Positions 4,158-54,953 are shown, counted from the stretch's first letter. The stretch: 64,000 nucleotides of DNA from an uncultured Methanomicrobiaceae archaeon (GCA_963826525.1 CAWGXH010000004.1:1248001-1312000); one strand, 5' to 3'. The notes: generated by a model from the letters alone, not told the origin. Program-made: numbers and translations.

Positions 4158-4231
4158 CCCGGCATCTCCCTACTCTTATATATTCTCTCCCGGCCAAGTT
4201 TTAGGGACCCAGACGATAAGGGGGCAGTGTG

Positions 4232-4787: not shown

Positions 4788-4793
4788 GATTCT

Positions 4794-4806
4794 CGAAATA
4801 TATAAA
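4794..4806 (+). promoter_or_regulatory. putative archaeal BRE/TATA promoter of the rps19e operon
   Basis: CGAAA followed by TATATAAA, about 50 bp upstream of the rps19e start. Confidence 0.5.
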
Positions 4807-4856
4807 ACGTCATTGGACGAATATGTAAAGACTGTTAGCGATGGTGAGGATTATCA

Positions 4857-5306
4857 ATGACAACCGTATATGACATTCCTGCTGATATGTTCATTCGGCA
4901 GGTAGCAGAAGAACTGAAGAAAAACCCCGTGGTTCAGCCCCCTGAATGGGCGGCCTTCGCCAAGACGGGAGTACACAGAGAGATGCCCCCCGAAGACCCC
5001 GACTGGTGGTACATGCGCTCCGCATCGGTACTGCGGCGCGTCTATATCGACGGCCCTGTTGGCATCCAGCGGATGCGTAGTTTCTACGGCGGGAAGCGCG
5101 ACCGGGGCTCAAGCCCCTACCAGTTCAGGAGAGGCAGCGGGTCGATCCTGCGCAAAGCCCTCCAGCAGCTTGAATCTGCCGGATACGTCTCGCAGAATAA
5201 GGAAGGGCGCATCGTCACTGCGGCCGGCAGGTCATTCATGGACAACGTCGCGAACAGCGTGAAGGCCCAGGCCGTTGAGGTTGCGCCCGGCCTTTCCAGA
5301 TATTAA
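4857..5306 (+). CDS. rps19e: 30S ribosomal protein S19e
   Basis: MTTVYDIPAD, PEWAAFAKTG, WWYMRSASVLRR, RKALQQLE. Confidence 0.97.
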   Translation: MTTVYDIPADMFIRQVAEELKKNPVVQPPEWAAFAKTGVHREMPPEDPDWWYMRSASVLRRVYIDGPVGIQRMRSFYGGKRDRGSSPYQFRRGSGSILRKALQQLESAGYVSQNKEGRIVTAAGRSFMDNVANSVKAQAVEVAPGLSRY

Positions 5307-5321
5307 CCGGAGGTATGCCTG

Positions 5322-5660
5322 ATGGGAGACGACGAACTCGCTGATCTTCGTCGCCGGAGAATGGAGCAGCTGCAGCGGCAGACGGCGGATCAACAGTCGA
5401 TGGAAGACGAGCTCGAGCGGCAGAAGCAGATGGAATCGCAGGTTCACATGGTGCTGATGCAGATACTCGAACCGGAAGCGAGGGAGCGGCTCAATACCAT
5501 CAAGTTGACAAAGCCGGACTTTGCAAAGGCTGTCGAGCAGCAGCTCGTCATGCTCGCGCAGAGCGGCCGGATACGACAGCGTATCACGGACGACCAGCTG
5601 AAAGAGCTGCTCAAGCAGCTCATTCCCTCGAAGAGAGACTACAAGATAACGCGAAAGTGA
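5322..5660 (+). CDS. PDCD5-like double-stranded DNA-binding protein
   Basis: DELADLRRRRMEQLQ, LEPEARERL, ITDDQLKELL. Confidence 0.92.
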   Translation: MGDDELADLRRRRMEQLQRQTADQQSMEDELERQKQMESQVHMVLMQILEPEARERLNTIKLTKPDFAKAVEQQLVMLAQSGRIRQRITDDQLKELLKQLIPSKRDYKITRK

Positions 5661-6262
5661 TGAAAGCCGGTGTTCTCTTTTCCGGAGGGAAAGACAGCGC
5701 GCTTGCGGCGATCATGCTTGCACGCGACTACGACGTGGAACTGAACACTTTTGTGTTCGACCCCGGACGGGAGATGCCCAGCGTTGAGGCTGCCGCCGCC
5801 GCACTCGGCCTTCCGTTCAGGAAACGCGTCTTCGGGGCCGATGTCCTCGATGAGGCCGTCGCCCTCGTGCTACGGTGCCGCTACCCGAACGATGCCATCA
5901 ATCTGGTGCATCGAAGGGCGGTCGAACTCCTCTGCGGCGAGTATGCCGTGGTGGGGGACGGCACCCGCTGGCAGGACCGGGTTCCGATGCTGGCAAGACC
6001 TGAGGTGCAGCGGATCGAAGCGCTCTACCGCTGCTCATATGTCCGGCCATTGCTCGGCTATGGAAAACCCGAGGTTGAGCGCCTCGCTGAAAGGCTCCTG
6101 GTGGTGAAATACGGTGAGACGGGAACGATCGAGAACGGTGATTACGAACAGGAACTCCGCTCGACGATCCGTGCCTCTGGGTTCGACCCCGCGACGTTCT
6201 TTCCCGAACACCACCGGCAGTCACTGGTGATCGGTATCACCGACAGATACAAATTGACGTGA
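5660..6262 (+). CDS. PP-loop (N-type ATP pyrophosphatase-like) conserved archaeal protein
   Basis: LFSGGKDS PP-loop, DGTR and DYE motifs. Conserved position before rpl39e. Confidence 0.8.
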   Translation: MKAGVLFSGGKDSALAAIMLARDYDVELNTFVFDPGREMPSVEAAAAALGLPFRKRVFGADVLDEAVALVLRCRYPNDAINLVHRRAVELLCGEYAVVGDGTRWQDRVPMLARPEVQRIEALYRCSYVRPLLGYGKPEVERLAERLLVVKYGETGTIENGDYEQELRSTIRASGFDPATFFPEHHRQSLVIGITDRYKLT

Positions 6263-6268
6263 TGAACT

Positions 6269-6421
6269 ATGAGCAAAGTAACAAAAGGCCGGAAGATCCG
6301 GCTGGCAAAGGCGTGCGAGCAGAACCGCCGCGTGCCTGCATGGGTGATGATCAGAACAAACCGGGCCGTCGTCTCGCACCCGTGCCGGCGCAACTGGAGA
6401 AAGAGCACGCTGAAGGTGTAA
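6269..6421 (+). CDS. rpl39e: 50S ribosomal protein L39e (absent from the ORF track)
   Basis: Hand-translated [50 protein letters not shown]. Confidence 0.95.
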
Positions 6422-6425
6422 GATC

Positions 6426-6689
6426 ATGGCCGAGATACTCAAAGAACATATTTATGTCGTCCCCCTGCGCGATGTGAAGCGCTCTCCCCGGTGGAAGAGA
6501 TGCAACACCGCTATCAAGGATATCAGGTCGTTCCTTGTGCAGCACATGAAGAGCGAGGATATCAAACTCGACAGCACCATCAACGAAAAGGTCTGGGAAC
6601 ACGGCAGCGAAAAGCCGCCGAGAAAGATTCGCATCCGTGCGATGAAGTTCGAGGACGGTCAGGTCCAGGCCGAACTCGCAGAGGAGTGA
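6426..6689 (+). CDS. rpl31e: 50S ribosomal protein L31e
   Basis: EHIYVVPLR...[19 protein letters not shown]. Confidence 0.95.
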
Positions 6690-6690
6690 A

Positions 6691-7353
6691 ATGAGCGGTA
6701 CAACCGATCTTGCCGGTGACCCGAATATCGGTGTGTACGCCCGCGTATTTGAGGACGTCGCAGTCGTATACCCGACGACGCCCGAGAGTTTTCGCTCGGC
6801 GCTCCGGGATGCACTGGACGTCGATCTGCTCGTAACGTCTGTACAGGGGAGCGAGATCATCGGTTCGCTGCTCACCGGCAACAGCCGGGGATTCGTCGTA
6901 AGCGGCCTCATATCGGATGAGGAGCTGGCAGCGCTCGAGGAGTACCGTGATGTGTATCTCCTTGAGGGTTCCATGAACGCTGCCGGGAACGTCATCCTTG
7001 CGAACGATTACTTCGCCGCCGTCCATCCGGATATGGAAGTCGGCGTTGCGGAGGAGATAGGTTCGTTCCTCGGTGTCCCGGTCGCCCGGATCTCCCTCGG
7101 CGGGATTAAAACCGTCGGTATGGCGGGATTCGCCACCAATAAGGGCGTTCTGGTTCACCCGCGTGCAGGAGAGGCTGAGATAGCGGCGCTCGAGCGGGTG
7201 ACCGATCTTCCCATCGGCCGCGGGTCGATCAACATGGGAAGCGGCCTTGTGGGAACCGGCCTTCTTGCCAATACGAAGGGCTACGTTGCAGGTACGTATA
7301 CGAGCGGTTTCGAGCTCGGTCGAATTGAGGAAGTATTTGGGTTTTTGGAGTGA
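6691..7353 (+). CDS. eif6: translation initiation factor 6 (aIF-6)
   Basis: [38 protein letters not shown]. Confidence 0.95.
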
Positions 7354-37215: not shown

Positions 37216-38503
37216 GTGAATATATGCTGTATTAAGGCTCAGAATTGTACTCTGCTCCTAGTCGCGCTCCTGCTTCTCGCGGGAGGGTTCGTCTCTTCCG
37301 CGTCTGCTGCCGGGACCGCCGACGTGACGATCGTCTCCTCTCCCGGTGGTGCCTCCGTCACGGTAGACGGCTCCTATGTCGGCATGACCTCGCGGGGTCG
37401 ACCCTTCCATTCTCCGTCACCGTGAACGCAGGAGCCCATACTGTGGCCGTAGCACTCACCGGGTACCAGCCCTCGGTTACCACCATCCAGGCGAAGCCGG
37501 GCGAGCTGCGGACGCTCTCGATGATCCTCGCCTCCTCCCCGGCGTCGGGTGCGGCATACGTCGCCTCGACGCCCGGGAGCGCGATGGCGTCGCTTGACGG
37601 CGGCGAGACACGGGCGACTCCCGCGAACTTCACCGTCGTGGCGCCCGGAACGCACTCGGTGAAGATCACGAAACCGGGTTTCGTTCCCTGGTCGAAGACG
37701 GTGACCGCCAATGCAATCCTGAACCCGGCGCCGGATACGGGAACGCTCTCGGTCATGTCAAACCCGTCCGGTGCCGATATCTATCTTGACGGGACGTACC
37801 TGGTTTATTCCCCGATCACCCTCGGGAACGTCGTCCAGGGCGGACACGAGCTCCGCCTGCAGCTCGCCGGGTACCAGACCTGGACGGGGACGGCATCGGT
37901 TGGAGGCGGGAAGACCGCTGCGGTGAGCGCAGTCCTCATCCCGACACCTGCCGGGACGTAGGTGACATCGCCGTGACGTCCACGCCCGCGGGAGCGGCGA
38001 TATATCTCGACAACACCTACCGGGGCACGACTGCCGCCGGGAACCCGATTGATATCACCGGGGTCTCTCCCGGTACGCACGCTGTCACGCTGACGCGTGC
38101 CCGGTATGCCGATTACGTCACCGGCGTTTCCGTCGCCCCGGGACAGACGGTGCGCATAGCCGCGGTGATGATGCCCGGTGCAGGCCCGGGTGAGAAAGGC
38201 TTGGTCGCGGTCTCTTCAAAACCCTCCAGTGCAGACATCTATCTCGACAACCAGTATCTCGGGATCACGCCGCTTACGCAGGCCGGCGTCGCGCCGGGTC
38301 AGCATGCGCTGCTTATGAAGGTGAACGGCTATACGGACTGGTCGGGAGATGTCCAGGTGGCGGCAGGGAAGACCACTGAGGTCACGGCAGGCATGATGGC
38401 GAAGCAGAGCGCGCCGGAGGCAGGGAGTGCTCCTGTCCTGCTGCCGGGTGCGCTCATGCTTGCCGCGGTGCTGTACCTCGCGTGCAGGATGAAACGAGAA
38501 TAA
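37216..38503 (+). CDS. PEGA-repeat cell-surface protein (frameshifts near 37395 and 37960)
   Basis: Signal peptide, about 5 S-x-P-x-G-A-x-I-Y-L-D repeats, C-terminal TM with basic tail. Confidence 0.85.
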
Positions 38504-38530
38504 CTCCCCCCATTTTCTCTGACGGATGGT

Positions 38531-38986
38531 TTAGCGTTTCACGACCATGACCGGCTGATGAGCATTTTTGACGACATACTCGGAGACGGTGCCGAGCAGC
38601 CGGTCGCGGATGTTGCTCCTGCCGTGCGATCCTATGACGATGAGGGAGACGTTCTCCTCGTCAGCCGCTTTGACAATCGCCTTTCCCGGCTCGTCGATGG
38701 GTGTCCGGACATGCACTGCGAACCCCTCCCGCTCGAGCTGCCGGCGTGTGTCGATGATGTTGTTCTGGATATCCTCCCGTAACCGTCGCTGAACCTCGGT
38801 CTCGACGTCCGGCACCGAGCCGAGGAAACCCGCTCCACCCGATGCGATCAGGGTGATATCCTTCTGGTCGATGACATGCACCATCACGACTTCGAGGGTG
38901 CCGGCGGCCTTCAGATCCCGGATATAGTCCATTGCTTTCAATGAGGGCTCGGAGAAGTCGGTGGGGAACAAAATGCGCTGAAACAC
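38531..38986 (-). CDS. universal stress protein
   Basis: ILFPTDFS, LIVIGSHGRS, LLGTVSEYVV. Confidence 0.93.
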   Translation of the reverse strand: MFQRILFPTDFSEPSLKAMDYIRDLKAAGTLEVVMVHVIDQKDITLIASGGAGFLGSVPDVETEVQRRLREDIQNNIIDTRRQLEREGFAVHVRTPIDEPGKAIVKAADEENVSLIVIGSHGRSNIRDRLLGTVSEYVVKNAHQPVMVVKR

Positions 38987-39069
38987 GGTTGGATCCTCCT
39001 CTGTGGATAACCAAACCTTTGTTCATCCTGTATATAAGAGTACGGTCGGGCCAGGCCGGGAACCGGCCT

Positions 39070-40143
39070 TTATCGGTGGCCGCCTGAACGGATTGCCCGT
39101 TGCCAGCGGTGCAGCATCCGGTGGATGCCTGCGGTTCCGACAGGAGCCGGGTAGGGGGCAGGGAGCGGTATCCCATCCTGCGTGAGGCGGAGATCGAGCG
39201 TTTCTACTAGTTCTGCGACGATCCCGCGCCCTTCCCCATCCTCTTCGAGCATTGGGGAGAACCGGTCGAACCTGATACGGGTTCCGGCGAGATCGGCGAA
39301 CTCTGCCAGAATCTCCTTCTGGTATGCAGCCTCCTCATGCACCGGATCACGGGAGTCCTGTCCGGTAAGTCTGCCCACCTCTTCGAGGAACCGGCGGGTT
39401 CCGGCGAGACCCGCCGGAAACGATTCGACGAAGGGTGTTCCGTGTCGGTGCATAAGTTCCTCCCCGACCGGCCGGAGAGCCGGTTCGCGGAGGATGTTGA
39501 GCGATCCCGCACCAAGCCGGGCGACATCGCGCGTAGCGATATCCCGGACGAACCGGAGGTTCACCGGAAGGTCGAAGTATGCAAGCAGACGCACCATCTC
39601 GGCGTAGTTTTCGTCGACATCCGATTCGAGGTTCTTTTCCCCGATGAGCGTCACCCCGGCGTCCTGTTGTGAGCAGGGTCCGGCAAGAGTCGCGGCGGCG
39701 AGCAGTGCATTCGAAACCCCCGTCTGGAAGATGCCGCCGAGGAATCCGGCCGTCCGGATGGGAACGACCGGCAGATCCCACTCGCGCGTGCAGACGCCGT
39801 AGACGTCGTCGCCGATGGTATCGACGATACAGGTGGAGAGGACGAAGAGCGACGCCGGGGATGGCAGAACCTCGTGAGCACGGCCGATGCACCGTTCAAG
39901 CGCATCTTCACCGCCGAAGATGATCTCGTTCTCGGAAAGCCCGGTCGAGAGGAGACGTGGGACGGCAACCGTATCGTTTCCGAGCAGCGTTGCATGGAGG
40001 AGGGAAAAATTGTGGTGGGTGCATCCGGCAGGGCCGTGGATGATGCAGACCGCGTCGCGTATCTCTGTCACCACGGCGAGAGCGCCGGTCAGGGTGCATC
40101 CCTCAAACCTGGACACATTCGAGGGCAAAGGCTTCGAGTTCAT
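39070..40143 (-). CDS. nitrogenase component-1-like oxidoreductase (D/N-like subunit)
   Basis: [40 protein letters not shown]. Overlaps the end of the nifH-like gene. Confidence 0.85.
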
Positions 40144-40921
40144 CCATGTCGAAGGGAGTCGGAATGCTCGTCTGGGTGTTCTTGTAGATATCGTCGGCCA
40201 GCTGCCGGTAGACCTCTGCCTGGCCGGAATCCGGAGCATACTCGATGACCGTCTGCCTGTTCAGCTCGGCGAGCTGGACGATGCGGTCGCGCGGTATATA
40301 CGCTATCAGGGATGAGTTGATACGCCGGGCGAACTCCTCCACGAGGTCACGTTCCCCTTCGATGTTCTTCGCGTTGCAGATGACGCCGCCGAGCCTGCAG
40401 CCGTTTCTGACCCTCTTCGAGAGGCGGGCGATCGCTTTTGCGATGTTGTTTGCAGCGTAGATCGACATCAGCTCGCCGGAGGTGACGAGGTATACCTCCT
40501 CGGCGTAATTCTCCCGCATCGGCATGGCGAAACCGCCGCAGACGACGTCGCCGAGGACGTCATAGACGATCACGTCGCCGTTAAGAGCGCCGAGCCGTTC
40601 CAGAAGCTGGAAGGTTGCGATGATTCCACGTCCGGCACACCCGATCCCCGGTTCCGGACCCCCTGCCTCCACGCAGCGCACACCCGAGAAACCGGGATGG
40701 ACGACGTCGTCCACGGTGAGGTTTGCATCTCCCCGCTCACGGATAAGGTCGAGCACGGTCGGGATCCAGGTCCCGTGCATCAGCATCCTGGTGCTGTCGT
40801 GCTTCGGATCACAGCCGATCTGCAGGATCTCAAGGCCGCTTCTTGCCAGTGCTGCCGAAAGGTTAGCCGACGTCGTGGATTTGCCGATTCCACCTTTCCC
40901 GTAGAGGGCGATCTGTTTCAT
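40103..40921 (-). CDS. NifH-like (nitrogenase iron protein family) ATPase/reductase
   Basis: [46 protein letters not shown]. Confidence 0.95.
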
Positions 40922-41358
40922 CCTAGAACCTACCTTACGTTAGGCACGCTGTCCTCAAATAATTAATCTGGATTTTCGTAAAGACAAGTGGATGTGCGGG
41001 ACACCGGGTATACGGCATCTCCCGCCTTCCATTCCCCGGCGGGTGCCTATCAGGCGCCGCATGCTCGATCTCCGGGCGGTGCGGTTCCCGGCGGCTACCC
41101 GGGAACGGCGGGTCGGAGACGTTAGCCCGAGACCATCTCGCGCTTCTGCCGGTGCCGCGGAGCCGGCCGTCAAAACACATCTTCTCAAATAAATAGTTTT
41201 GTCCTTTCTTAAATCCGGTCAGATGAACTCTTTTAGAGGATATGTCACGATGAGGATTCAGTTTAATATTCTGAGTCTTATAAATTGTTATTTATTATCC
41301 AGAAGGTATATAATTGGCGAGTTGAAAACCTACGTACACCACAGGGGAGCTGACGTAT

Positions 41359-41988
41359 ATGGACCCACACTACCGTTCACGACTGATTGCCGTTGTCATC
41401 GCCATGATCGTTATCTGTTCGGCTTTTTCGGTCAGCCCGGTAGCTGGATTCCGACTGGAGAACAGGGATGGAAACGGCACCGGTGCAATACTTGCCGAAT
41501 CGCTGGTAATGCAGGAGAGCACCAAGCTTGAGGAAGAGTTTCTGGAAAACGTGACCGTCTACATCGACAGCCGGAGCGACAAGTTCGAGCCGTACCGAAA
41601 CTCCTCGCTCGAGGTTTTTGTGAACGGTGTCTATAGCCTTGAGGAGGATGCGATCTACCTGCGATCGGATCTGAATCCCGAGAGTGCGGACGAGACGCTC
41701 GTCCAGCAGATCGGATACCGGATCTACTACCGGAAGGGGCTTGAGAAGAGCGATCTTCTGCGGTCGCTCACACCGGCTCCCGGGTCTTACCTGAGCCGAA
41801 TCAGCACCCTGCCGGGCGAGGTCACCGGTGCGACCGTCTTTGCAAATGCCTTCATGCTCTACTACACATCCCCCGAGCTGCTCGAGACGGACAACCCCGG
41901 GCTCTACACCTATATCGACCTGCTCGTCGAGACAGGAGGGGATGCAGCGGTCGTCGACGACCTGTACCGCACCTCCGAGCCGGCGTGA
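41359..41988 (+). CDS. secreted protein with a degenerate lethal-factor-like zincin fold (predicted inactive)
   Basis: Signal peptide, then GVY...AIYL...LVQQIGY (HExxH position), TVFANAF, NPGLYTYID. Confidence 0.6.
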   Translation: MDPHYRSRLIAVVIAMIVICSAFSVSPVAGFRLENRDGNGTGAILAESLVMQESTKLEEEFLENVTVYIDSRSDKFEPYRNSSLEVFVNGVYSLEEDAIYLRSDLNPESADETLVQQIGYRIYYRKGLEKSDLLRSLTPAPGSYLSRISTLPGEVTGATVFANAFMLYYTSPELLETDNPGLYTYIDLLVETGGDAAVVDDLYRTSEPA

Positions 41989-42004
41989 TCCGGCTTTTCT
42001 CACG

Positions 42005-42013
42005 TTTTTTTTT
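42005..42013 (+). terminator. archaeal oligo-T terminator
   Basis: Run of T shortly after the 41988 stop. Confidence 0.45.
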
Positions 42014-42579
42014 AGGCTCATTTCAGGGCGCTTCCCTTTCAGTCTTTTCGATCCGGACTCTTCAAACCCGCAGGGAAATCGATTTACGTACGATGATATG
42101 ATCCTGCGTTCCGGCGCAATGAACGCCGGGATGAACTGATGGGCTTCAACCCTGCATGGCGAGCGTTTTTCCGGCCGGAGCCGGTGATCAATGCCTCACC
42201 GGGTTCGTTTCGCGTCTCGATGCAGATTTCCGCTGGTAGGTCTACTGCGCTCCGGTGAGATGTGCGTGACTGTCCCCTGTTCCGGGAAGAATATTCGGCT
42301 TCATGATACGTGACGGCACGGGTGCTGGATTTTTCCATACGCTGATTTTTTCCAGCGCGATTGAGATATATGCTCGACCGTTCAAGGTTTCTCAAGGGCC
42401 TGATTGCCATGCGAGAGTTTGTGGTACTTCGGATGTGCGATTAATTCAGGGAAAAGCGAGTGCTGTTCATCCCACCCTGATAAGCCGGATGAGCATACTA
42501 TAGCTCGAAGGCAGATGTGTTTGCATTCTTCAACTTAAGAGTCTGCTCGTTTTTGCCTTCGGTTTGAAGGTGATTACCA

Positions 42580-45500
42580 ATGAGCACGAAACGTATAGAG
42601 AGAGTCATTCCTCTTCTCATGGCGGTGCTGATGATAACCACGGCGTTCATCCCCGCGGTGAGCGCTATGGCACCGCAGGCAACTGCATCGAGTATGGATG
42701 CCGGGGGGATACTCGGTGCCTGACATAACCCCTTCTGCCGCAGAGATGTCCGGAGCGGCATCCGGGACGGTATCGAACGGTCAAAGCGTTGCAAAAAATA
42801 AGAAGAACCAGTCGTCGTGGTCGGCAGAGAACTGGGCACAACCCATGTCTGGGACGAACGCCACCGGCTATGCCCCTTCGGGGATTGAGTCTGCCGCAGA
42901 ACCGGGTATAGATTCTCTAGGCGGCAGGAGTTGAACGCGTGGTCACCGGTTCCGGCAAGACCAAGATCAAGGTTCACGATCCGGAGACCAGAACCATCGG
43001 GATTCAGGACGAGAGCAGGTCTGGCGGCAACGGCGGCGACGATGAACTCGAGATCAGGCTGCTGAACGCCACCCCTGACCTCGGCACCTTCACGGAGATA
43101 TTCGAGGTAACCGCACACCGCATGATCGCACTCGACGAATCGGAAGACTTCCTGGCCACGAGAGCGCTCCATAACGGGAACGAGAACGTCACACGGGCTA
43201 CCAGTGGTTCGTCTGAGAGAACAGATCGCATACCGTCGAGATTCACATCATCGAATAACGAAATGTTACCCTGCGGCATACCGCTCTCCTGAGAATGAAC
43301 CCGAGGACGTCGATCCTGACGACACCTTCGGAGATATTACCCTCGCAGAGCGGCGACTCACAAGGCAAAGCCGGGCTGAAAGTACCTATGAAGAGATCTT
43401 AATGAAGGATAAAACTCTTGAGAGCGGTGTTCACGAGGAGATCGTCCCCGAGAGCGCTCCCCACCAGAACAGCACCCCGGAAAACAGCACTTCTGAGAAC
43501 GTTCCCATCGAAGACGTCATCCCTGACATCGATATCTCCGGAAACACCACTCCTGATGAGACAACTTCCAAAACCGTCACAATCAGAGAGCCCTATATCG
43601 CCGGCACCGAGACCAGGGAGGAATCCTGGCCGGAGTGGGTGGCGTTCGACCCGGCAGGGCGGACGGCTCAATGTCGGTGAGACCTATCAGTTCAAGGTAA
43701 TCTACAAAGAATACGCCGAGATAGGACAGTTCGATATCAAGACGGCGCCGGTCATCGAGGCGTCGCATGCCCGGAGATGACCTGGTGGACTACCGCCTGG
43801 GCATACTGGGTGCCGATCACGATCATCAGCCCGCCCTCAATCGATGGCTACTCGCACTGTGAGAACGTCTCATTCCGCGACGGGATGCAGAGCGACTTCG
43901 ATGACGTCCGGTTCGCAACCGACGACGGCACCGTCCTCGACTACTGGAAAGAGTCCTATACGGCATCCGGTTCGGCGGCCATCTGGGTCGGCCTTCCCGC
44001 CGGTACGACCTCGATCTGGATGTACTACGGGAACGCGAGCTGCCACCGATATCGGCGACATGAACAGTGTCTTCACCCTCTACGATGGCTTCGACGGGCC
44101 GTCTCTCGACACCACTCTGTGGCATGAATCGCCTTATCCTGGGGTGAATTACTTCTCCAAAGGCTGGATATACAATGCCCAGTCTCATAATGCACTACGA
44201 ACTAGAATACTCGGAATAGTGTGATTCACGAGCGGCGAACCGCTGATCGTGGCGATGCACATCCATGTCGATAGTCTGCCTCGGTCTCCCACCATCAGCT
44301 GTGGGTGTTTCCCCTATTCCTTGGCGGCATTTACAACGGCATGTCTTGGTGCTGGGAGGGGCCGTACAGACCGGCGTGTCCGCGTGAATGGTGTGTCATC
44401 ATGGCGACCGGGAACATCAGCGTGGTCTCGAGGTTGGGGGTGACTACTACAGCACTTGGATCATCACTCCCTCCACTCAAACTCACACTGTCAGCGGAAG
44501 CGCCACATACACCGATGTTTTCGCTGGCACTACCGGGATATCAAACCATCAAATGTTCCTCCTAGGCGGTGACAACTACATTCCCGGTCGAGTAATACGG
44601 ATGGACTGGGTCAGGGTCCGGAAATACGTCGAGACCGAACCGGTGTTCACGTATGGAACACCGCAGGAATCACCCGTCGTGACGACGATCTCTGTCACTC
44701 CGTCGGATGTGGATCTAGCGGTGGGCGAGACCTGTCAGTTCACTGCTACTGCTTATGACGATGCTGGTAACGTGGTGGACATCACCTTCACCTGGGAGAG
44801 CAGCAACGAGACGGTCGGCACCGTGACCGAAGACGGTGTCTTTTCAGCAAATTACGACGGGACAACCGAAATATCTGCATCTGCAGGTTCGATAACCGTA
44901 ACCGCGCAGGTGACCGTCATCCCTGTCAGTGACGTACGGATCGGCATGGAACTGCTCTGCCGACGGCTGGTATCAGGCTGGTCGTCTACCGCATCGTGGA
45001 CATGCCCTAACGGCGCCTGCGCCGAATATGGCCCCGTCATGGTCGACGGTCACGGAGAACACGGTGCGGACGTCCATCTCTCGGCGGGTGCGGTGATAGC
45101 AAGTGTCGAGCACAACTTTACTGATCCCTCCGGTGTCGGGTGGGACGGCTTGGCGCTCGTCGCGCGCGTGGGGGGAAGCAGCGTCCCCTCCGGGCGGTGG
45201 ATGACCATCGAGGTGAACGGCGAGCTTGTTTACTCGGAGTCCGGTTTCTCCAGCCTCCGATCCTGACAATGCGATCCCCAGGATGTTCCAGGCCGACTTC
45301 CCGCAATCCGACACCGTGCGGATAAGATATCTCCCATGGGCAGAACCCGATGTGGAGCACTCACGTCCCGATGGACTACTATTCGCTCGAATTGCATCCG
45401 TCTACTCCCCCCATCGCCATCACCTCTCCGCGTGACGATACGGTGCCGTCCGGCGAGAACGTCACCGTGGCCGGGAACGTCTCCGATACGAGCATTACCA

Positions 45501-48500
45501 ACCTCACGCTCACTCACAACGGCGTGAATTCGACCCTCACGGTGCAGAACGGGATACTTTTCGGCCAAGGTGACCCTTGCGGATGCGAATACGATCACGG
45601 TCAGCGGCACCGACTCGTGGGGCAACCCGATCTCGAAGACGCTCCTGCTGGACGGCGATATGCTGCCAGCCGACTTCGAAGAGTCGATCGGGTTCGATCC
45701 GCTCGACGCTGATTCCGACTGGACCCAGTGGTATGGAAACCAGGCAGACAACGGGATCATCGACGGTTACGAGCACTCCTTCAACGGGCTGCCGGTCTTT
45801 GTGAAGTACCGGATCGGCGCCGATCCGTTCGCGTTTGATAGTGACGGCGATTGGCTCCTCGACGACTTCGAGCTGATGCACCTCGCCCTCACCACCAGTG
45901 TCTGCTCGTCTGATTCCGATGGCAACGGTATACTGGATAGGGACGAGGACCCGGATGATGATGGTCTTTCGAATTATGAGGAACAGACCTACGGGACCGA
46001 ACCGCTGATGGCCGATACCGACGACGACGCTCTTCCCGACCGGGAGGAGATCTCGCTGGGAACCGATCCCTGCAACGCAGATACCGACGGCGACGGCATT
46101 CTCGACGGCTATGAGGTGACACTCGGAACCGGCCTTCTGAACAACGATACGGCCGTCCTCGGCACACTAGACGGTGAGGAGGATTACTGGAGCACCGGGC
46201 ATTATATCAACGAAACGCTGAACCTGACGGTCCACGGCCGGGGCTACGCGATCGCCAACGCCAGTGTTCCCAGGTTAACTTCACCAATCTTATGCGAGAG
46301 GATGTCCTCGTCAGCAAGGTCTACGATATCGGGTTCGGCGATGGTATCGACCACGGAACGGTAACGATCAAGTATAACAGCACGTTCGTTGAAGATAACG
46401 AAACCCTGTCGGTATACCGGTTCGACGAAGATTTCGGGACGTTTTTGCCGATCAATTCGACGGTCGACGAAACACAGGGGGTCGTGACCTGCGCCGTGAC
46501 CAACTCCTCGATGTACGCCGTGCTGGATTCGGTGAAGTGGGACTCCCTTTTCGTCAACTGGCCGGGCATGTCGTCCAGTGAGGTGTCGGCACTAGGTGAG
46601 GGATGGCAGGCTGTTGCAAACGGAGATTTCTCGGAGGGGCAGACCGGTTGGGTGCCGTCCGGTCAGTATTTCTACAATCAAGCGAACTATGGAATGATAG
46701 TTGAGCCCTATTATCACTCGGGGTACGAACCTTCTCCGCCATCTTTGAGAATTTCGATCTGGAATAAAAGGCCTGAGGATTTTACAGAATGCATAGTAAT
46801 GCACCCCAATGTTGATCTGACAGATGTCGATTCCCTTACATTCAGACTACAGGTGCATTGAAAGCCATCAGAGTGGGGGCATCGCCTCGTCCGGGTTACG
46901 ATACTGGATCGATGGGGTATCCACTGCGGGATCGCCGAGTTTCAGGGATGACGGTAGTGGCCTGGTCTGGGTGGATAAGGAATGGCAGACGGCAACTATC
47001 GATGTGAGTGACGTCAAGGGTGTAAGATCTCTATATTTCAAAGTCTCGATGAACAGGGACATGGGAATAATCGAGTATAACGAAGCAGACCTGACATATC
47101 TCATTGACGATGTTACTGCCTGGTCGAAGACGGAGCCACACAGCCCGATACCGCCATCGTGCGGCTCCATGTCGAAGATATCGCAGTCGCATGCAGGCGT
47201 GCCCAACGCAAAAATCACCCTTTCCGATAGTGGGAAATATGTGTATACCGATGCATACGGAAATGCCTATGATTTTCTCTTTAAAGGCCCTTTAGTGACT
47301 CTATCTCCTACCGTATCGAAGCGGAAGGCTACAACAATCATGACGGATACATACGAATCGATCCCGATGATTTCGGCACAAACCGTACCGATAAAGCAGT
47401 CATCAACGATGGTCTCACGGGTTCGATCGAGGTAACCTACACTCAATCGCAGGTATTCATCTACGTTGACGATATGTACTATCAGGGCCACTGGAAACAC
47501 TGCTTATATTTTCGATCTCTGTGCAGAACCAGGATACAAATTCGCATATCGTTAGATTTGAAAAGGTGAGTTGGAGTCCCCAAAAACAGATGTTTGGTAC
47601 CTGCCGGTGGTCAGCCGCACGTTTCCTTTAACCTGATGGATGCAACGGGGGCAATCGAGGTCACCTCCACGCCGCCGGGTGCCGCCGTGTACCTCGATCA
47701 GGTGTATAGAAACACCACGTCAGAGGGTTCCGGACTCCTCACGATATCGAATGTCAACTCCGGCCAGCACCGGATCGACGTTCAAAAGGACGGCTATGCT
47801 CCGTTCTGGACGACGGTAACGGTGGCCGATGGTCAGACTGCTCAGGTGGAGGCGGACCTCGACAACACGACGAAGAGGAGGACGGCATACTGGATTACTA
47901 CGAGAGGAACGGGTTCGTCGACGGCTTCGGCAATCGGCACGTAACCAATCCCGACTCGGTCGACACCGACGGCGACGGGCTCTCGGACGGATACGAGGTG
48001 ACGGAACTCGTCCATCTGGGTGGGAATCTCTTCTTCTTCAAGTCCAGGAGCGACCTGACGAAAGTAGACAGCGATGACGATGGGATTAATGATCCCGACG
48101 AGCCCGAGTTCTTGACGCAGCCGATGAGACGCGATACCGATTCGGATAGGATCCTCGATAGGTGCGAGCTCCTGCTCGGGACCGATCCGATCAACCGTGA
48201 CACGGACTATGACGGGAATGATGACTATCTCGAGTTACAGTTTGACTATCCCTACGGTCCGCTGGTTCATGCCGACAGGAGTTACATTGAAAACGCCATT
48301 GCTCTTGCCGACGGTTTTGCCTCCGGCGAGAGGGGCGCAGACCGTTGCGACAACCTGTACGACCTTGCCGGGTGGATGTTAAGTGGTGTTGTCCTTGCAG
48401 GAGATATCCGTGATATAGGCGGGTCGATAGTGCGCGGCGACGGGATGGGAACGCTGGCGAATGCCTTTGCTCAGATCCCGGCAATAGGAGATGCTGAAAG

Positions 48501-49340
48501 GGCGGTTATATAAGGAGCCAAATATTTGAAACGATCACGAGAAGAATCGAGGTAGCGCAACGTTTGTTCCGAGGTATATCGCCTCGTCCATCGATTCGGT
48601 TAAGAAGATCATCGGTTAATACGTCATCGACGGGTTGAGGGCAAAAGGGTTTAAGGATGATGCAAGCGTACGCTTACTAAACAGGGGATCAAATCTAAAT
48701 TGCTCGACGAAGCGCTGGACAATGCCGTCGTCAACGGCCAGAGCATCTACGTGCGGTACCCGGGTCTCAAGAATTTCTTTAGCGATAAGAATGACCCTGG
48801 AGGGCTCTGGTCTTCAAGGAACAGGGGACGTTCAACACACTGAATATCGTTCGCGCCGGAAACTGGACAGTCGGTCCTTCGGTATACGAACAATCTCCAG
48901 GGAGCCTATTCCGAGTTCTGCGCGAAAGGCTGGACATCGGCGGCGATGCGGGTACGCGACCTGAGCGACATCAACACGGGCGGCGTCGACTACGCCGCGC
49001 TGGTGGATGGCGGAAACACCCTGAAGATCGTGGAGGTCAAAGCTCGGCAGAGACTGGAGCGAGCGGATCTTAGGAATTACATAAAATTCGATCGAACAGT
49101 ACAATCCCGAGTCTTTCAACGTGGACTACGTGATTCTGAGCCTCGGAGAGGACTTCTTCAAGGAGCAGTCGACCGTCAGCAAGGAATTCGTGCTGTATAT
49201 CAACAGCCCCGAGAGCACGGCGATCAGGAGTCACCTGAACTTTGATCCCGACCTGTGTTTATGGTATGAATTTACAGGTAAGGACGGTACAAAACATTCG
49301 GGAACCGTAAAAATTACGGTGACGGCGGTGAAAAAACAGG
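42580..49340 (+). CDS. large secreted multidomain protein with C-terminal PD-(D/E)xK nuclease (candidate polymorphic toxin). Heavily frameshifted, may be a pseudogene.
   Basis: GAAGGTGA RBS and signal peptide (...FIPAVSA). DUF2341-like (SDFDDVRF...LDYW...IWMYYGN), Big_2 Ig, DxDxDG repeats, ZU5/GPS-like segment, PEGA, GDIRDI..QIPAIGDA helices, GAYSE..GVD..IVEVK. Confidence 0.7.
45650..46180 (+). repeat. DxDxDG(L)xDxxE calcium-binding (TSP3-like) peptide repeats
   Basis: DSDGDWLLDDFE, DSDGNGILD, DPDDDGLSNYEE, DTDDDALPDREE, DTDGDGILDGYE. A second set lies at about 47960-48240. Confidence 0.8.
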
Positions 49341-49348
49341 TGAAGAGC

Positions 49349-50539
49349 ATGGCGGGTAATGCATTTCAAAAGTATTTATTTGAGGAGCGGGAACGATGCG
49401 AGTCGCTCCTGAAGGGATTGGGAGCGGTACGATAGGTTGCCGGAAAAACTCGACTCAGAGCCGATCATATGCTATGAGAAACTCGGATCCATCTATCTGT
49501 ATTCCGGAGAGACCGACCTTGCCGGAAGGATGTTCTCCAACCTCTCCCTTTTCGGCACGGCCATCAGAAAATCCCGGTTCGACATCAAAGGGTTCAAAGA
49601 AGAAGATAAAGCCAAACCGGATCTTCTCGTGATGATAGCAAAGGGAGATATAGAGAATGCGATTTATCTCCTTCTTGCAGGGAAGAACCCGGATCAGGTT
49701 CATCGACTCGTTACGTGGGCGGCGGAGAACACCGATCTTCCACCCGACTACGTCAGGGGGCGACTGGGGGTTCAGGACTATAGCGAAGTCGCCGTCGGGT
49801 ACCTCTGGCACGGCTACGCCCTGATCTGCCTCGGGCGGTACGGGGAGGCGCTTCCGCTGCTCACGGGAGGTGACCCCGCTCTTCGTCCAGGAGCGGAAGA
49901 GCGGCGTCGAGGTCTGGCAGAAGGTCGAGTATGCCCTCCCGAAGGCGCTCGTACCCCTCTGCGAGTTCGAGCTCGATCCCACCGCCGACCGCCTGAAAGC
50001 GGCGCAGGAGGGGATCGAGACCTACCTCAAAAGCCTGAAGATGTACCGCGATCGTCTCAGCGGCCTCCTCTACTATTTCCACCTCAAGAAGCAGTTCGCC
50101 GACGTCTACGAAGCCGATCCGGCATCGTTCGTCCCACCATCCGCAAACGGTAGCGGAAAAGCCGGCTATGGCCTCGCAACCGGTCACCGGCCGGGAGAAG
50201 GACCCCGAAGGTATGATCGTCATGGGACTGACCCAGTTGGATCCGCCGAAGGTCTGGACGCTGGGATCGTTTGGGTGCTACGCGGATTTCGAGGCGTTCA
50301 CTGCGTACGTCCGCTCTCTCGGCGGGTATCCTGCGCTCGCGGCACTGATGGACACCTATACCCTCGAAGAGCAGCAGGAGGCCGCGCCGTTTATCGAGGA
50401 GTGCGAACGGCTTCTCCAGCTCCGGGATCTCGATCCGAGGGTTCGTGCCGTTGCGGAGGAGATCCTTTCGGCTCTGCAGACCGCGGTGCAGGAAGGTGCA
50501 ATACCGGACGATCTGGTGGTGGAGATCTACCAGGGGTAA
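49349..50539 (+). CDS. helical hypothetical protein, candidate immunity protein (probably one gene with frameshifts near 49420, 49865 and 50160, possibly two genes)
   Basis: AGGTGA RBS, abuts the nuclease C-terminus, no signal peptide. TPR-like segments (YEKLGSIYL; GYALICLGRYGEALPLL). Confidence 0.6.
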
Positions 50540-50687
50540 GGGCTGCTGTGAGGGATCGGTTCCAATCCCTTCAGGGCACGGTGCTATCCTGAATTACCTA
50601 TCGGCCGGATGCACCCACTTTTTCTGAGAGACGCCGACGGCAATCCCGATAGCAAAAAGCGGTGCGCCCCGGCTGGCCCCGCCCCCC

Positions 50688-52146
50688 TCAGTCGAACCGC
50701 TTGAATATCCCGAGGAAGAGCATGATCACCGGGATGATCTCAAGACGCCCGATCCACATGATCATGATGAAGAGCACCTTTGCCGAGGCGGACATATCGG
50801 GGGAGACGAACCCGGTGCTGATCCCGTTGTTGCACATCGCCGACACGACCTCGAAGATGACATTGCTCGACTCGAACCCGGTCGGCTGCAGGTGCATCGC
50901 GAGGACGGTGGCGATGAAGATGATCAGGAAATAGAGCATGATCACCAGCATGTTCCGGGAGACCTCGAGGTCGGCGATATTCTTCGGGATGACCTTCCCC
51001 TCGTACTTGAACGGAACGAGCACCTTCCCCGAGACGAGCATCCTCCGGAACCACCACAAAAGACTCTGTGTACCGAGGACGACGCGGGAGAGCTTGATAC
51101 CTCCGGCAGTGCTCCCGGACGCTCCACCGATCACCATCAGCATCGAGAGGAAGAGCACCGTGACGCTCGCCCATTCGTTCGGCGAGCTCGATCTGAAAGC
51201 CGGTGCTGGTGGCGGCCGCGATCGACATGAAGAGCGCCTGCCGGATCGCCGTCGGCGTATCGGCGAAGGAGAGGGTGACGAGGTCCCAGGCGATGACCAC
51301 GATACCGACCGCGATGAGGATGAAGAGCAGCCGTGCCTGTGAATCGCCGAAGAACTTCACTCCTTTCTTGTTGTACATGTAGTAGTACAGTTTGAACGGC
51401 AGGGCGCCGGCGATCATGACGGGTATGATGAGGATCTCAAGAAGCGGGTTGTCGTAGTAGGGAATTCCTGCCGCATGGACGGAGAACCCGCCGGTGGAGA
51501 TCCCGACGAGTGCGATATTGATTGCGTCCCAGACCGGTATCCCGGAGAGGAGGATCATCCCGACCGAGGCGGCCGTCAGGACGAGATAGATCTTCCACAT
51601 CTCAAGCCCTGTTGCCACCACGCTCGGCATCAGCGCCTCGCTCCGCCCCTCCGACCGGTAGAGCCGGAACTGCGTCAGGCCCGTCCTGCTCGCCATGGCG
51701 ATGGTGAATGCGACGATCCCGATACCGCCGAGCCACTGCATGAGCGACCGCCAGAAGAGCAGCGTCTTTGGTAGTGTGTCGATATCGGGGGCAAGCGTCA
51801 GGCCGGTATCCGTCCACCCCGACATCGCTTCAAAGACGCTGTCGAGGTAGGGCATCCCTATCCCGAGCGTGAACGGGAGCGCCCCCACGATAGCACAGAT
51901 CAGCCAGATGATGGCGACCGCCATGAGGGCTGCGGAGAGAGGCGGTTCCCGCTCCCGGTGCGGAACCCGCGTGAGCAGCGTGCCGAGGAGAAAGAGGGTG
52001 ATCGGAACCGATGCCATCGGGAGCAGCATATTCCACTCCTGGTAGATCAGCGTGATAAGGAGCGGCACCGCTGTACCGATGCTGATAAATCTGAAGATAT
52101 TGCCGATATCGGGTGCGATGATGGAGAACTGCTCGACCCTGTCCAT
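50688..52146 (-). CDS. trkH: TrkH family potassium uptake protein (frameshift near 51190)
   Basis: FEAMSGWTDTG, QWLGGIG, ISTGGF, GGASGSTAGGIK, MWIGRLE. Confidence 0.92.
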
Positions 52147-52268
52147 CGATAAAACAACGCTCTATCGCGTATTATCTCTTTTCTTGTAAGACCTTTGAAA
52201 TCGGGCGGGAAATGGCGGGGAGAGGGGATACTTACCCGCTGTTCCGCAGACTCGCGAAGCCCCGCGGT

Positions 52269-53240
52269 TCAGGTGCGATCGGGCGTTGCCTCGATGAAGA
52301 TTCTGCGATTGATGATCTGCCAGGCGAGGATGAGCTGGACCACCTCACCCGCCGTCAGGTAGGAATCGTCGACGGCGAACTTAATGGGGTGAATCTCGGT
52401 CTGATCCTCGATGTTCTCCTCAAGTTTCCCGATGACATCGGCGTTTACCTCTCCGTCGAGGGTGAGCGCCCCCATAGGCCGGCCGTAGATATCGTCGACG
52501 GAGTATTCGAGGAGGAAGTTCCTCTCCGAGAGCGAGAGGAGCGAGAAGAGATCAATCGAGAGATCGATCTCCCTGATGCTCCGATCAAGCCTGCTCTGGC
52601 AGAGTGAAACCTGGTAGACGTTCCGCTCTTCGCTCACCGCCCGTCCGTACTTCGAGTATGAGATCCTGATGATCGCATCGGCAAACCCGCACTGCGGGGC
52701 AACATACCGCTCGTAATCGGGTTTGCGCCGGATCATCTCCTGAACGACTGCCTCCGGCCGGTAACCCCGCCGATCGACATCGCGTTGTATCTTCCAGGCA
52801 CGTTTGACCTCGGGGTCGGGATCGACGTAGAGTTTGAAGTCGATGAGCTCCCGGAGGCGGGGCGTGAAGAAGGGATGCAGTCCTTCGAGGATGACGATCT
52901 TGCTCGGCGAGAAGGGAACGGGGTCTTCGAAGGTGCCTTTGTCGTGATTGTACACCGGCTTTTCGATGGTTTCTCCTGCTTTCAGTGCCGCTACGTGCTC
53001 TTCAAGGAGTTTGAATCTGTTCGCTTCCGGGACGAGTGGCGTGATCCCGAGTTCTGCCCGTTCCTGCCGGTCGAGCGAGTGGTAGTCGTCGAGCGTGATG
53101 GTGGATACGAGATCCTCGCCGAATATCTGCCGTATCGTCCGGGTGAAGGTCGTTTTTCCGGAACCGCTGTCTCCTGCGACCCCGATGATATAGATATATG
53201 GAGACTCTGCGATGATATCCCTGAAGTTCGCGGGCTGCAT
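52269..53240 (-). CDS. prk: phosphoribulokinase (archaeal type, PRK/uridine kinase family)
   Basis: IIGVAGDSGSGKTTF, LDDYHSLDR, YNHDKG, EGLHPF, WKIQRD, long C-terminal extension. Confidence 0.8.
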   Translation of the reverse strand: MQPANFRDIIAESPYIYIIGVAGDSGSGKTTFTRTIRQIFGEDLVSTITLDDYHSLDRQERAELGITPLVPEANRFKLLEEHVAALKAGETIEKPVYNHDKGTFEDPVPFSPSKIVILEGLHPFFTPRLRELIDFKLYVDPDPEVKRAWKIQRDVDRRGYRPEAVVQEMIRRKPDYERYVAPQCGFADAIIRISYSKYGRAVSEERNVYQVSLCQSRLDRSIREIDLSIDLFSLLSLSERNFLLEYSVDDIYGRPMGALTLDGEVNADVIGKLEENIEDQTEIHPIKFAVDDSYLTAGEVVQLILAWQIINRRIFIEATPDRT

Positions 53241-53349
53241 GGTTGGTGATCGGGTGGACGGTAGTGCATCGTTAAGATTTCGGTAGCGGGAGCACTGAAG
53301 CGCCCTGTGCAGAAAAAAAGTGGTGTGATAATCGATCCGATCTTCGGTG

Positions 53350-53751
53350 TTACTGCTTGTTCGTCCAGAGCTGGTGAATATTGCAGTAGATCCGCGCTTT
53401 TACGTTCGTATCGTCGATCCAGGGAAATGTCGCCTCGGGAGGCCCTGTCGGGTCGAGTTTCTGGATAAAGAGGTATGGGCCTTTCCTGACCTCGACCCAC
53501 TCGATGTGGTGTTCGGGTATCATGGGATGGGGCGTCGAGCCGATCTTCACCCGGATGCCCTGGTCGGCCTTCTCGATCACCGGCACGTGCTTCTCCGTAA
53601 GCCCTTCCTCACGCATCTTCTCCGGGAGGTGCTGCCACTCGCAGGTTGTCTCGCCGGTGCAGATCGTATCCTCGGGGCTGTTTCCGGAATGCGATACCTT
53701 CACCACGTCTCCCGTGGACGGGCACTTGTATAACTCCAGCAATCTGCTCAT
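53350..53751 (-). CDS. superoxide reductase (desulfoferrodoxin family)
   Basis: Centre-II ligands EKHVP, PHPM, EHHIEW, YCNIHQLW. Confidence 0.9.
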   Translation of the reverse strand: MSRLLELYKCPSTGDVVKVSHSGNSPEDTICTGETTCEWQHLPEKMREEGLTEKHVPVIEKADQGIRVKIGSTPHPMIPEHHIEWVEVRKGPYLFIQKLDPTGPPEATFPWIDDTNVKARIYCNIHQLWTNKQ

Positions 53752-54953
53752 GCTATGTTGCCTCCTTCTCTGACGAGGGAGTCGTTCTCATGCCTTTTAA
53801 CGATTTCGTCGGCGAGGCGATCGAGTGCGGCGAACGCTTCTTCGTCGGGATTGCCCCGGATCATCACCGGTTCGATGAATTCGACCTTGAGCCGATCGAG
53901 CATCCCGGTTGTCCGGTCGACTGCCTTTCCTCCCCACCCATACGACCCGATGACTGCGGCATACCGGGTCTTCGGGCGGAGGAGGTTCGTGATGTAGGCG
54001 GCGGAGATGACCTCCGGGTGCGGGCCGAAAAGGACCGTCGGCGTCCCGATGACGATGGTGGCGGCGTCGACGATCGCCATGGCAAGCTCGCCGGGGTCCG
54101 TTCTCGTCAGATTGAAGGGCTTGACGGTGACGCCTCGTGCAATCAGCGCCCCGGTAAGATGGTCGACCATCTCCCGGGTGCTTCCGTGCATGGAGACGAA
54201 AGGAAGGACGACCTCGTTCTTCACCGCATCGTCCGTCCAGTCGCGGTAGGCGTCGAGGATCCGTGACGGCTGGTCGTGGAGCGGCCCGTGGCTCGGTGCG
54301 ATGATCTCGATCCCAAGCGGTTCGAGCCTCTCCAGGTATCCCTGGATGCTCTTTCGAAACGGCATCATGAGCTCGGCGTAGTAGCGCTTCGCTGCAGGAT
54401 AGAGGGCAGCCGTATCGTCTGCATAGAGATCGCTCGTGGCGTAGTGAGCGCCGAAGAGATCGCAGGAGAAGAGGAGGCGATCCCCCTCGAGGTACGAAAG
54501 TCTGCGTATCCGGCCAGTGGACCCAGGGAGTGATGAAGAATCGGAGTGTCCGGTCGCCGAGAGAGAGCGTGTCGTTGTCCGCGATGACGCGGATCTTTTC
54601 GGATGGGATATGCAGAAGGCTCATCAGGAGATCGCGGGCCTTCGCGTTTGTCACCACCTCCGCACCCTCGTAGCGTTTGAGCAGCACCGGAAGGGATCCC
54701 GAGTGATCCTGCTCGGCGTGGTTGACGACGATGTAATCGATCGACGCGATCCCGAGTCCGTCCAGGTTCGCCAGAGCTCGCTCGTCTTCGTCGGATCGAC
54801 GGTGTCGATCAGGGCTACCTTCTCGCTGCCGCGGACGATATAGGCGTTGTAGCTCGTTCCGTTGGGGAGCGGGATGAGTGCATCGAAGATCTCTCTATCC
54901 CAGTCTATTGCACCGACAGCGAAGCACCCGGGCAGAATCTGCCGTGCCGGCAT
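53748..54953 (-). CDS. fprA: FprA family A-type flavoprotein (flavodiiron protein), frameshifted
   Basis: GTSYNAY, VHWPD, IAPSHGP, flavodoxin SMHGST, GSYGWGG. Confidence 0.9.

Follow-up and report, generated by a model that had tools for sequence, protein, structure and literature searches.

The 64,000-nucleotide stretch CAWGXH010000004.1:1248001-1312000 (assembly GCA_963826525.1), here called the window and counted from its first letter, comes from an uncultured Methanomicrobiaceae archaeon whose genome (G000) contains mcrA. On its + strand the window is read, with a probability of about 0.8, as encoding a methanogen's polymorphic toxin, exported by the Sec route, and the cognate immunity gene. 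This interpretation, first put forward in a sequence-only reading of the same DNA, finds support in the pieces of a giant gene that belong together, in the variable tails carried by its relatives and in a downstream partner that is linked to the tail.

As assembled, the + strand between 42500 and 50600 contains no long open reading frame (ORF), and overlapping pieces in all three frames are found instead. Intact homologues reveal how these pieces are related. In G024, a genome of the same family and another genus, the locus L018 (positions 1199-7123) encodes an intact protein of 1975 residues that is collinear with window positions 42580-48543; along this alignment the window changes frame repeatedly. 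The intact database/metagenome protein P0092 aligns over all of its 1816 residues to 43885-49336 with 64% identity (73% over the last 142 residues) and combines the window's tail with Pfam DUF2341, Big_2, Glucodextran_B, PEGA and TSP3. At least five copies of the carrier occur in G024, with ~72% nucleotide identity to window positions 42500-46550, and the homology with these paralogues starts at ~42502. The probable start codon, ATG 42580, is preceded by AGGTGAT, while the C-termini of the homologues align to 49334-49336 and a TGA is located at 49341 in the next frame. Judged by this collinearity, the pieces from 42580 to 49343 form one gene, as had been proposed for the fragments from 42580 to about 49340, and do not resolve into separate unrelated genes. 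The locus had been drawn from 41359 onward, but 41359-41988 is an unrelated ORF of 209 residues. The features of the toxin gene and of the gene behind it are the following:

42580-49343, + strand: giant predicted toxin gene of ~2250 codons, collinear with the L018 protein and P0092, in more than 15 frame pieces as assembled
42580-42672, + strand: predicted Sec-type signal peptide of 31 residues (...SAMA), judged by eye from the translation (MSTKRIERVIPLLMAVLMITTAFIPAVSAMA); the N-termini at L018, L015 and L019 are alike
43894-44128, + strand: DUF2341 (PF10102), split over two frames, Pfam E 3.2e-10 and 0.0033 for the two pieces
44679-44918, + strand: immunoglobulin-like (Ig-like) domain Big_2 (PF02368), Pfam E 6.3e-10
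45407-45532, + strand: second Ig-like domain (Big_7 or Glucodextran_B-like), Pfam Big_7 E 1e-4, just below the cut-off (23.3 bits against 24.1)
45705-46142, + strand: first Asp-rich TSP3 block, from the translation and TSP3_bac (E 3.8e-7, best stretch 46080-46130)
47648-47869, + strand: PEGA (PF08308), Pfam E 2.6e-13
47830-48240, + strand: second TSP3 block, from the translation; TSP3_bac E 2.2e-4, below the cut-off, for the stretch 47962-48003
48400-48510, + strand: junction motif (GDIRDIGG...IPAIGDAE), which recurs in relatives and marks the end of carrier homology
48511-48689, + strand: helical linker with two in-frame stops (TAA 48511 and TAA 48617), from a frameshift-aware comparison guided by P0003, P0004, the L035 tail and P0092
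48690-49336, + strand: tail domain of ~200 residues, putative PD-(D/E)xK-type nuclease, in several frames, from the alignment of homologues
49349-50539, + strand: predicted immunity gene of 393 codons, TPR-like, 85% identical (335/393) to an intact protein of G001, a genome of the same genus

The order predicted from these matches is signal peptide, DUF2341, Ig-like domains, TSP3, PEGA, TSP3, junction motif and a tail of ~200 residues. Most of it had been anticipated: the Sec signal peptide is recognizable by eye at 42580, and the DUF2341-like, Ig, DxDxDG-type (TSP3), PEGA and further repeat regions have Pfam matches, with Big_7 and the second TSP3 block below their cut-offs; an intact paralogue and P0092 both match Glucodextran_B at the second Ig-like domain. 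A ZU5/GPS-like segment, also proposed, was not found by Pfam at E≤1, either on the pieces 46178-47566 or in the same region of the intact paralogue. The hairpin described as pre-toxin-like is present as the junction motif, but no pre-toxin family of Pfam matches the junction pieces. The motif occurs in the window, in the paralogues L018, L016 and L015, in P0003 and P0007 and in a second locus of G000 described below, and the homology among paralogues ends just behind it. In a related contig of the public run X1, positions 48528-48735, which begin shortly after the motif, are replaced by 193 other letters.

Comparison of the relatives demonstrates a modular exchange of predicted tails and carriers. 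The paralogues L018 and L016 are homologous up to residues 1795 and 1655 of their 1975 and 1822 residues, and their last 180 and 167 residues show no relationship; between L016 and L015 the identity is 81.5% over 1238 residues, after which the tails are unrelated. Across the G024 paralogues the carrier is 61-81% identical and the last 125-180 residues are unrelated, so the carrier recurs with other C-termini, as the earlier interpretation implied. The tail family of the window, in turn, is found elsewhere on four other carrier architectures, among them PEGA plus TSP3, VWA plus TSP3 and DUF4114 plus TSP3, and as one orphan of 160 residues; the C-terminus is neither invariant on the carrier nor tied to one architecture. 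Behind the L018 toxin follow an ORF of 403 residues, a short TSP3-repeat cassette with another tail, and a SUKH-1 protein (E 1.4e-9). Orphan tail cassettes are present at L018, L030, L031 and L032 and absent from the window's own locus.

Other loci of this kind were observed as well. A second tail type (...NGY.VTAYP...) occurs at L018, L016, L030 and L031, in several cases followed by ORFs that end alike (...GRVDL..IE); these may be a further tail and partner that co-vary within this carrier family. At L032:6001-12475 (Methanolobus psychrotolerans), the window's tail type occurs in two tandem copies, and behind each stands a gene of the immunity family; the second immunity copy is split and runs on into an ORF of 751 residues. 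Outside the window, contig C3 of G000 (~362400-367500, covered in part by L002) holds a second, frame-broken toxin-like locus with PEGA, TSP3, a junction motif of the same kind and a different tail. Downstream of it are an open ORF of 352 residues resembling the SUKH-bearing immunity ORF of L018 and further ORFs, and an apparent start of an orphan cassette is located at 367277.

The gene at 49349-50539 is the predicted partner of the tail. Its ATG sits behind GGTGAAG, 5 nt downstream of the toxin gene; a gene directly after the toxin with its own ribosome-binding site is present as described, but with the G001 protein as a guide its frame is broken by exactly three single extra bases (49427, 49866 and 50149). 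A pattern scan of 185,579 species genomes yielded seven loci with the tail, and in all seven the next ORF, after a gap of 0-12 nt, shares 35-41% identity with the G001 protein (E 6e-68 to 8e-91). A metagenome scan added 11 further tail loci, ten with a partner homologue and the eleventh with a remnant of 69 residues. The adjacency is strict, with a partner homologue directly behind the tail in 18/18 other loci (counting the remnant), of which ~15 are independent (L041 duplicates L029, L045 duplicates L035 and L044 duplicates L043). These loci come from other genera and orders; among cultured strains, Methanosarcina sp. 2.H.T.1A.6 (L033) and Methanolobus psychrotolerans YSF-03 (L032) carry the pair. 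A non-archaeal label occurs only at L029/L041, a 2.9-kb contig binned as Desulfobacterales, for which a binning error is possible.

Both members of the pair are rare. The tail profile matched one of 401 sampled genomes of the phylum, G000 alone, and the partner was found in two of 151 genomes of the order by a single-protein search and in three of the 401 by its profile. Among 5.8 billion proteins the partner family comprises 74 clusters, all named hypothetical or TPR, and the organisms given for them are methanogens or Methanoperedens, apart from one Desulfobacterales metagenome-assembled genome (the 2.9-kb contig). G001 carries the partner and no tail (0/3 genomes), and a partner without its toxin makes more sense as an orphan immunity gene. 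The partner family (~390 residues, TPR-like) is held by neither current Pfam nor NCBIfam: the G001 protein matched only TPR_12 in Pfam (E 0.0058, below the cut-off) and no SUKH or Imm family, and nothing in NCBIfam or PADLOC. Its Atlas structure matches are TPR proteins with a TM of at most 0.42, and its profile found among PDB sequences only a short TPR stretch (E 1.4e-4), with no stretch passing alone.

Tail and partner diverge in parallel. Over 36 pairs of nine loci, their identities correlate with a Mantel r of 0.877, which was reached by one of 5000 permutations and to which shared descent contributes, being able to explain the parallel divergence alone. A complex model, built for the Methanosarcina tail and partner as relatives of the window's pair and with alignments of our own making, scored 0.83, against 0.01 for the best of three controls; the mark set for this score is reached by 58/80 solved complexes and 2/110 mismatched pairs. 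At least 70% of the contacts agree between runs, the predicted local distance difference test (pLDDT) of the partner is at least 87, and the modelled contacts (88, 90-93 and 111-114) flank D95 and E108/K110 of the tail. The model supports binding of the tail by its partner and, together with the adjacency in the 18 other loci, bears out the proposal that the downstream gene goes with the tail.

As regards the tail itself, a search with the piece 48868-49083 against 1.84 billion representatives returned eight proteins at E≤0.001, seven of them true homologues and one a spurious repeat protein. The seven are intact domains of ~200 residues ending in ...AVNK or alike, and P0003, which is among the tail homologues, also has the junction motif. 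The window pieces 48868-49083 and 49085-49345, although in different frames, align to one homologue domain. In 13/13 tails D95, E108 and K110 are invariant, and E71 is kept in at least 90%, giving the pattern E...D...ExK; in the window the sequence here is GVDY ... VEVK. For the Methanosarcina tail, an AlphaFold model (pLDDT 88.2, predicted template modelling score 0.86) suggests the order helix-strand-strand-strand-helix-strand, with a helix at 55-78, strands at 81-84, 96-100 and 103-110, helices at 118-121 and 138-145, short strands at 125-127 and 134-136, and a strand at 158-165. The long helix of this model carries E71, the second strand opens with D95 and the third contains E108 and K110, the places expected in the alpha-beta-beta-beta-alpha-beta core of PD-(D/E)xK nucleases.

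The weak leads from YraN, Mrr_cat and an Atlas cluster all point to one superfamily, PD-(D/E)xK. Non-significant Foldseek matches include McrBC (E 0.10), 4zqu (E 0.12) and SfsA (E 0.16); McrBC and SfsA we take to be nucleases of the PD-(D/E)xK fold. The best hhalign comparison with Mrr_cat (E 0.008, probability 4.9%) has the motifs in register, while an unrelated control profile gave E 0.28. An Atlas cluster with Mrr_cat scored 0.90, such look-alikes serving as leads only. The comparison with Mrr_cat became no better when the tail alignment was extended to 29 sequences, YraN (PF02021) was found in 0/61 genomes of the order, and the tail profile had no credible match among PDB sequences (best E 0.15, legumain). 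Toxin-tail families of Pfam such as Tox-REase, and its pre-toxin families, matched none of the 13 tails (E≤10) or of the seven intact homologues (E≤1), and the tail had no match in plasmids, phages, viral contigs or PADLOC. The tail family is held by neither current Pfam nor NCBIfam. Of the PD-(D/E)xK tip that had been proposed, the conserved E...D...ExK residues are there, but the fold lacks a significant Foldseek or profile match; a nuclease fold is nevertheless likely.

Several results weigh against the interpretation as a toxin with its immunity gene, or against parts of it, in addition to the shared descent behind the covariation and the borrowed pair behind the complex model. Foldseek of the tail model found nothing in the PDB at E≤0.001 (best 0.043), PDDEXK_4 of Pfam matched only one of 13 tails (E 0.0038), YraN of NCBIfam matched the tail at E 0.005, far below its cut-off, and hhalign of the tail with Mrr_cat gave E 0.008-0.015 at a probability of 3-5%. 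For the protein, neither an anchor nor a release protease nor a delivery route was found. The frame of the tail, as assembled, has no stop before ATG 49349, and the partner gene stands at the same site in the toxin-free G001 and has a genome-like G+C content. The toxin gene shows 24-27 frameshift events in 5.5-6 kb, a density 3-6 times that of its flanks. Finally, TAA 48617 is in frame with four guides (P0003, P0004, the L035 tail and P0092) and TAA 48511 with P0003 and P0092; the path of the L035 guide meets a stop at 48527 instead of 48511, and the P0004 alignment starts behind 48511.

The frame breaks give rise to the strongest alternative, namely that the system is the same but dead here: the locus would be a real pseudogene pair whose breaks and stops exist in the cell and which yields no toxin. 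This is a serious possibility, if one with less than an even chance. By our own frameshift-aware alignment against intact protein guides, the toxin gene shows 27 events relative to the L018 protein (22 extra and 5 missing bases) and 24 relative to P0092 (4.4 per kb), and the immunity gene 2.5 per kb, compared with 27 events (19 extra, 8 missing), or 0.77 per kb, over the 34.9 kb of 26 flanking genes aligned to G001 ORFs. Real decay is also suggested by the two in-frame stops within 107 nt before the tail, given that stops in the flanks were flagged only at the edges of stop-to-stop segments, and by the second toxin-like locus on contig C3, which is broken too. The argument that there are too few stops for real decay kept only modest force once stops were calculated against indels: at 3-5 substitutions per indel, decay is expected to produce 2-3 stops, so the ratio is indecisive.

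Against real decay, the error mode appears to be assembly-wide, because the flanks show the same extra-base insertions. Among 52 flanking ORF segments, some of which may be shadow frames, 19 need at least one frame switch (25 in all) where the matching G001 ORFs are open. The isolated indels relative to G001 are nearly all single extra bases in the window and are spread along its whole length; examples are found at 3938, 9233, 16962, 28157, 28621, 28896 and 51189, and trkH is among the broken ORFs. The toxin's 22 extra and 5 missing bases follow the same bias as the flanks, opposite to the deletion bias that is usual in gene decay. The genome is 87.6% complete although it has only 16 contigs, a combination that agrees with a long-read assembly rich in errors, and the immunity protein is still 85% identical to that of G001 over its full length. 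One public run, X1, matches the stretch (share 0.08); its short-read contigs from a microbial mat metagenome represent a relative of another strain at ~88% identity, with no cover at 42677-42953 and 44339-44615, and a contig of 3680 nt spans 45729-49392 in three pieces. Among the 12 indels listed of 40, the X1 contigs are without the window's base in 11, and seven of these lie at most 15 nt from extra bases called by the protein guides. Assembly errors probably account for the majority of the frame breaks in this copy, and the odds lean modestly towards a gene that is intact in the cell.

An improbable alternative accepts the gene structure and denies the weapon. The protein would serve adhesion or belong to the envelope, its tail breaking down nucleic acid outside the cell as a nutrient or to remodel biofilms, and the TPR-like partner would act as a chaperone or assist export. 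Domains of the kinds found in the stalk (Ig-like, PEGA and TSP3, with VWA in relatives) are indeed those of adhesins, neither delivery machinery nor a release protease was found, and TPR-like proteins often act as chaperones. Such a role would leave unexplained the swapping of unrelated tails among paralogues on one carrier as well as the orphan tail cassettes and SUKH immunity genes in the same loci. A chaperone would also be useless in G001, which keeps the partner without any tail, whereas the modelled contacts flank the catalytic motif as expected for an inhibitor.

That the downstream gene is an ordinary resident of the genus, placed beside the toxin only through the toxin's insertion, was the first reading of it, because it is present at the same site in the toxin-free G001 (with a 39-nt remnant in G002), and its genome-like G+C and a variable segment that stops 20 nt before ATG 49349 agree with this; the idea was dropped as very improbable because a partner follows the same tail in 18/18 loci of other genera and orders, is otherwise as rare as noted above and is modelled to bind the tail.

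Apart from 42443-49328, the window keeps synteny with G001 throughout, at 86-91% identity; in the excepted segment blastn with L003 (G001) finds no homology after 42442 until 49329; the left junction of this variable part lies within 42443-42501 and its right end 20 nt before ATG 49349. At the same site G001 has the open 393-codon partner gene and, before it, a gene for a DUF4013 membrane protein instead of the toxin, while G002 keeps only the last 39 nt of the partner gene. The neighbouring features are:

40103-40921, minus strand: nifH-like gene (Fer4_NifH E 1e-109), beside a gene of the nitrogenase-component-1 type
41359-41988: unrelated ORF of 209 residues, immediate left neighbour of the toxin gene
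42326-42442, + strand: final stretch of homology with G001 ahead of the variable segment (76% over 119 nt by blastn with L003)

The locus had been placed between nifH-like and trkH genes. Both are there, TrkH being confirmed on the G001 ortholog of the gene at 50.7-52.1 kb, but the nifH-like gene is not adjacent, since the 209-residue ORF stands between. The genes of the NifH family and of the nitrogenase-component-1 type lie side by side on the minus strand at 39070-40921, a pair that presumably resembles the nitrogenase-like enzymes of methanogen cofactor synthesis. Between the 209-residue ORF and trkH, each of the three genomes of the genus (window, L003 and L028) has contents of its own, with toxin and immunity gene in G000, DUF4013 and immunity gene in G001, and the 39-nt remnant with an HI0933-like flavoprotein gene in G002. 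No Rfam family was found in 41000-51000, no tRNA in 38000-54000, and no 9-mer is common to the two junctions.

Linker and tail (48511-49343) have a G+C content of 51.4%, as low as only 4.7% of the genome's 800-nt windows, compared with 58.6% for the immunity gene and 59.7% for the genome. Because the partner is genome-like (0.586) and linker plus tail are not (0.514), tail and partner may differ in their time of arrival. Of the two genes here, the immunity gene seems to be the older, because its G+C is that of the genome and the sister species retains it; a resident orphan immunity gene might thus serve as a landing pad for a later toxin.

Taken as a toxin system, the locus would function as follows. 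A protein of ~2250 residues would be exported via its signal peptide and would display a long stalk of beta-sandwich domains (DUF2341, Ig-like and PEGA) and calcium-binding TSP3 repeats, ending behind the junction motif in the exchangeable E...D...ExK domain of ~200 residues. The junction motif may be the place where recombination swaps tails. Once released and taken up, the tail would act as a toxic nuclease and damage the nucleic acid of neighbouring archaea that have no antidote, whereas the cytoplasmic, TPR-like protein of 393 residues would bind the tail face around the catalytic motif and shield the producer and its kin. A wider proposal, about evenly balanced between holding and failing, is that the cassette, so far confined almost entirely to methanogens and methane-oxidising archaea, is transferred between Methanomicrobiales and Methanosarcinales on Sec-exported carriers that are interchangeable, and serves contact-dependent, kin-discriminating antagonism, with the resident orphan immunity gene as landing pad.

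In the sections of recent work that treat the subject, antagonism between archaea consists almost only of haloarchaeal halocins and a haloarchaeal injection system (10.64898/2026.07.27.741052; PMC11566945), and archaeal polymorphic toxins appear, as of 2021, as predicted and uncharacterised (PMC8416519). Here a concrete tail-immunity pair is defined that is conserved, rare and modelled to bind, and that cultured strains also carry. Genetic tools exist for Methanosarcina. With the pair available in cultured strains and tools for the genus, a possible role of contact-dependent toxins in conflicts among methanogens becomes directly testable. The case also illustrates how an error-rich long-read assembly may disguise a gene of 2250 codons as fragments. 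The kind of system is known from bacteria and was earlier predicted in archaea; the tail and immunity families lie outside current Pfam and NCBIfam.

A close likeness is to the Sec-dependent bacterial polymorphic toxins with Tox-REase tails, as outlined in the relevant parts of Zhang et al. 2012 (PMC3482391). The resemblance extends to the signal peptide, stalk and pre-toxin junction, to an exchangeable tail with E, D and ExK followed directly by an immunity gene, and to orphan cassettes and orphan immunity genes. Measured against the definition given there, the locus has an export signal (by eye) with a repeat or adhesion region (DUF2341, Big_2, TSP3 and PEGA), a variable C-terminus, a downstream immunity gene paired with the tail, and relatives with orphan immunity (G001) or orphan cassettes (L018, L030, L031 and L032); as predicted from these features, it is a polymorphic toxin system at the level of sequence. 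The passages on archaea in the same source describe classical polymorphic toxin systems as scarce there and most immunity superfamilies as absent (PMC3482391). Unlike the bacterial systems, the host here is a methanogenic archaeon, the tail has no Pfam family at E≤10 except for one weak PDDEXK_4 match, the immunity protein is a TPR-like protein of 390 residues without a Pfam or NCBIfam family, and the stalk consists of DUF2341, Ig, PEGA and TSP3 domains instead of RHS or filamentous haemagglutinin repeats.

CdiA/CdiI systems share a giant surface protein, a motif before a variable toxic tail and an immunity protein that binds the tail, although this binding is modelled here. In contrast to them, the window's protein has no two-partner secretion domain and no VENN motif, and archaea have no outer membrane; the Foldseek match to 4zqu, a CdiA-CT/CdiI entry, was not significant (E 0.12).

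Among archaea, the locus resembles the predicted contact-dependent toxin systems of Makarova et al. 2019, as summarised in parts of PMC8416519 and PMC6393860. In those parts, DNase and RNase tails are the commonest, PD-DExK is mentioned and none had then been characterised experimentally. The VARTIG modules of Thermococcales, in the account of them in PMC8416519, likewise combine a large Ig surface protein with a hypervariable C-terminus and variable downstream genes. They are described there without a recognisable toxin domain (PMC8416519), whereas the tail reported here carries a nuclease-like signature and is followed by a conserved partner.

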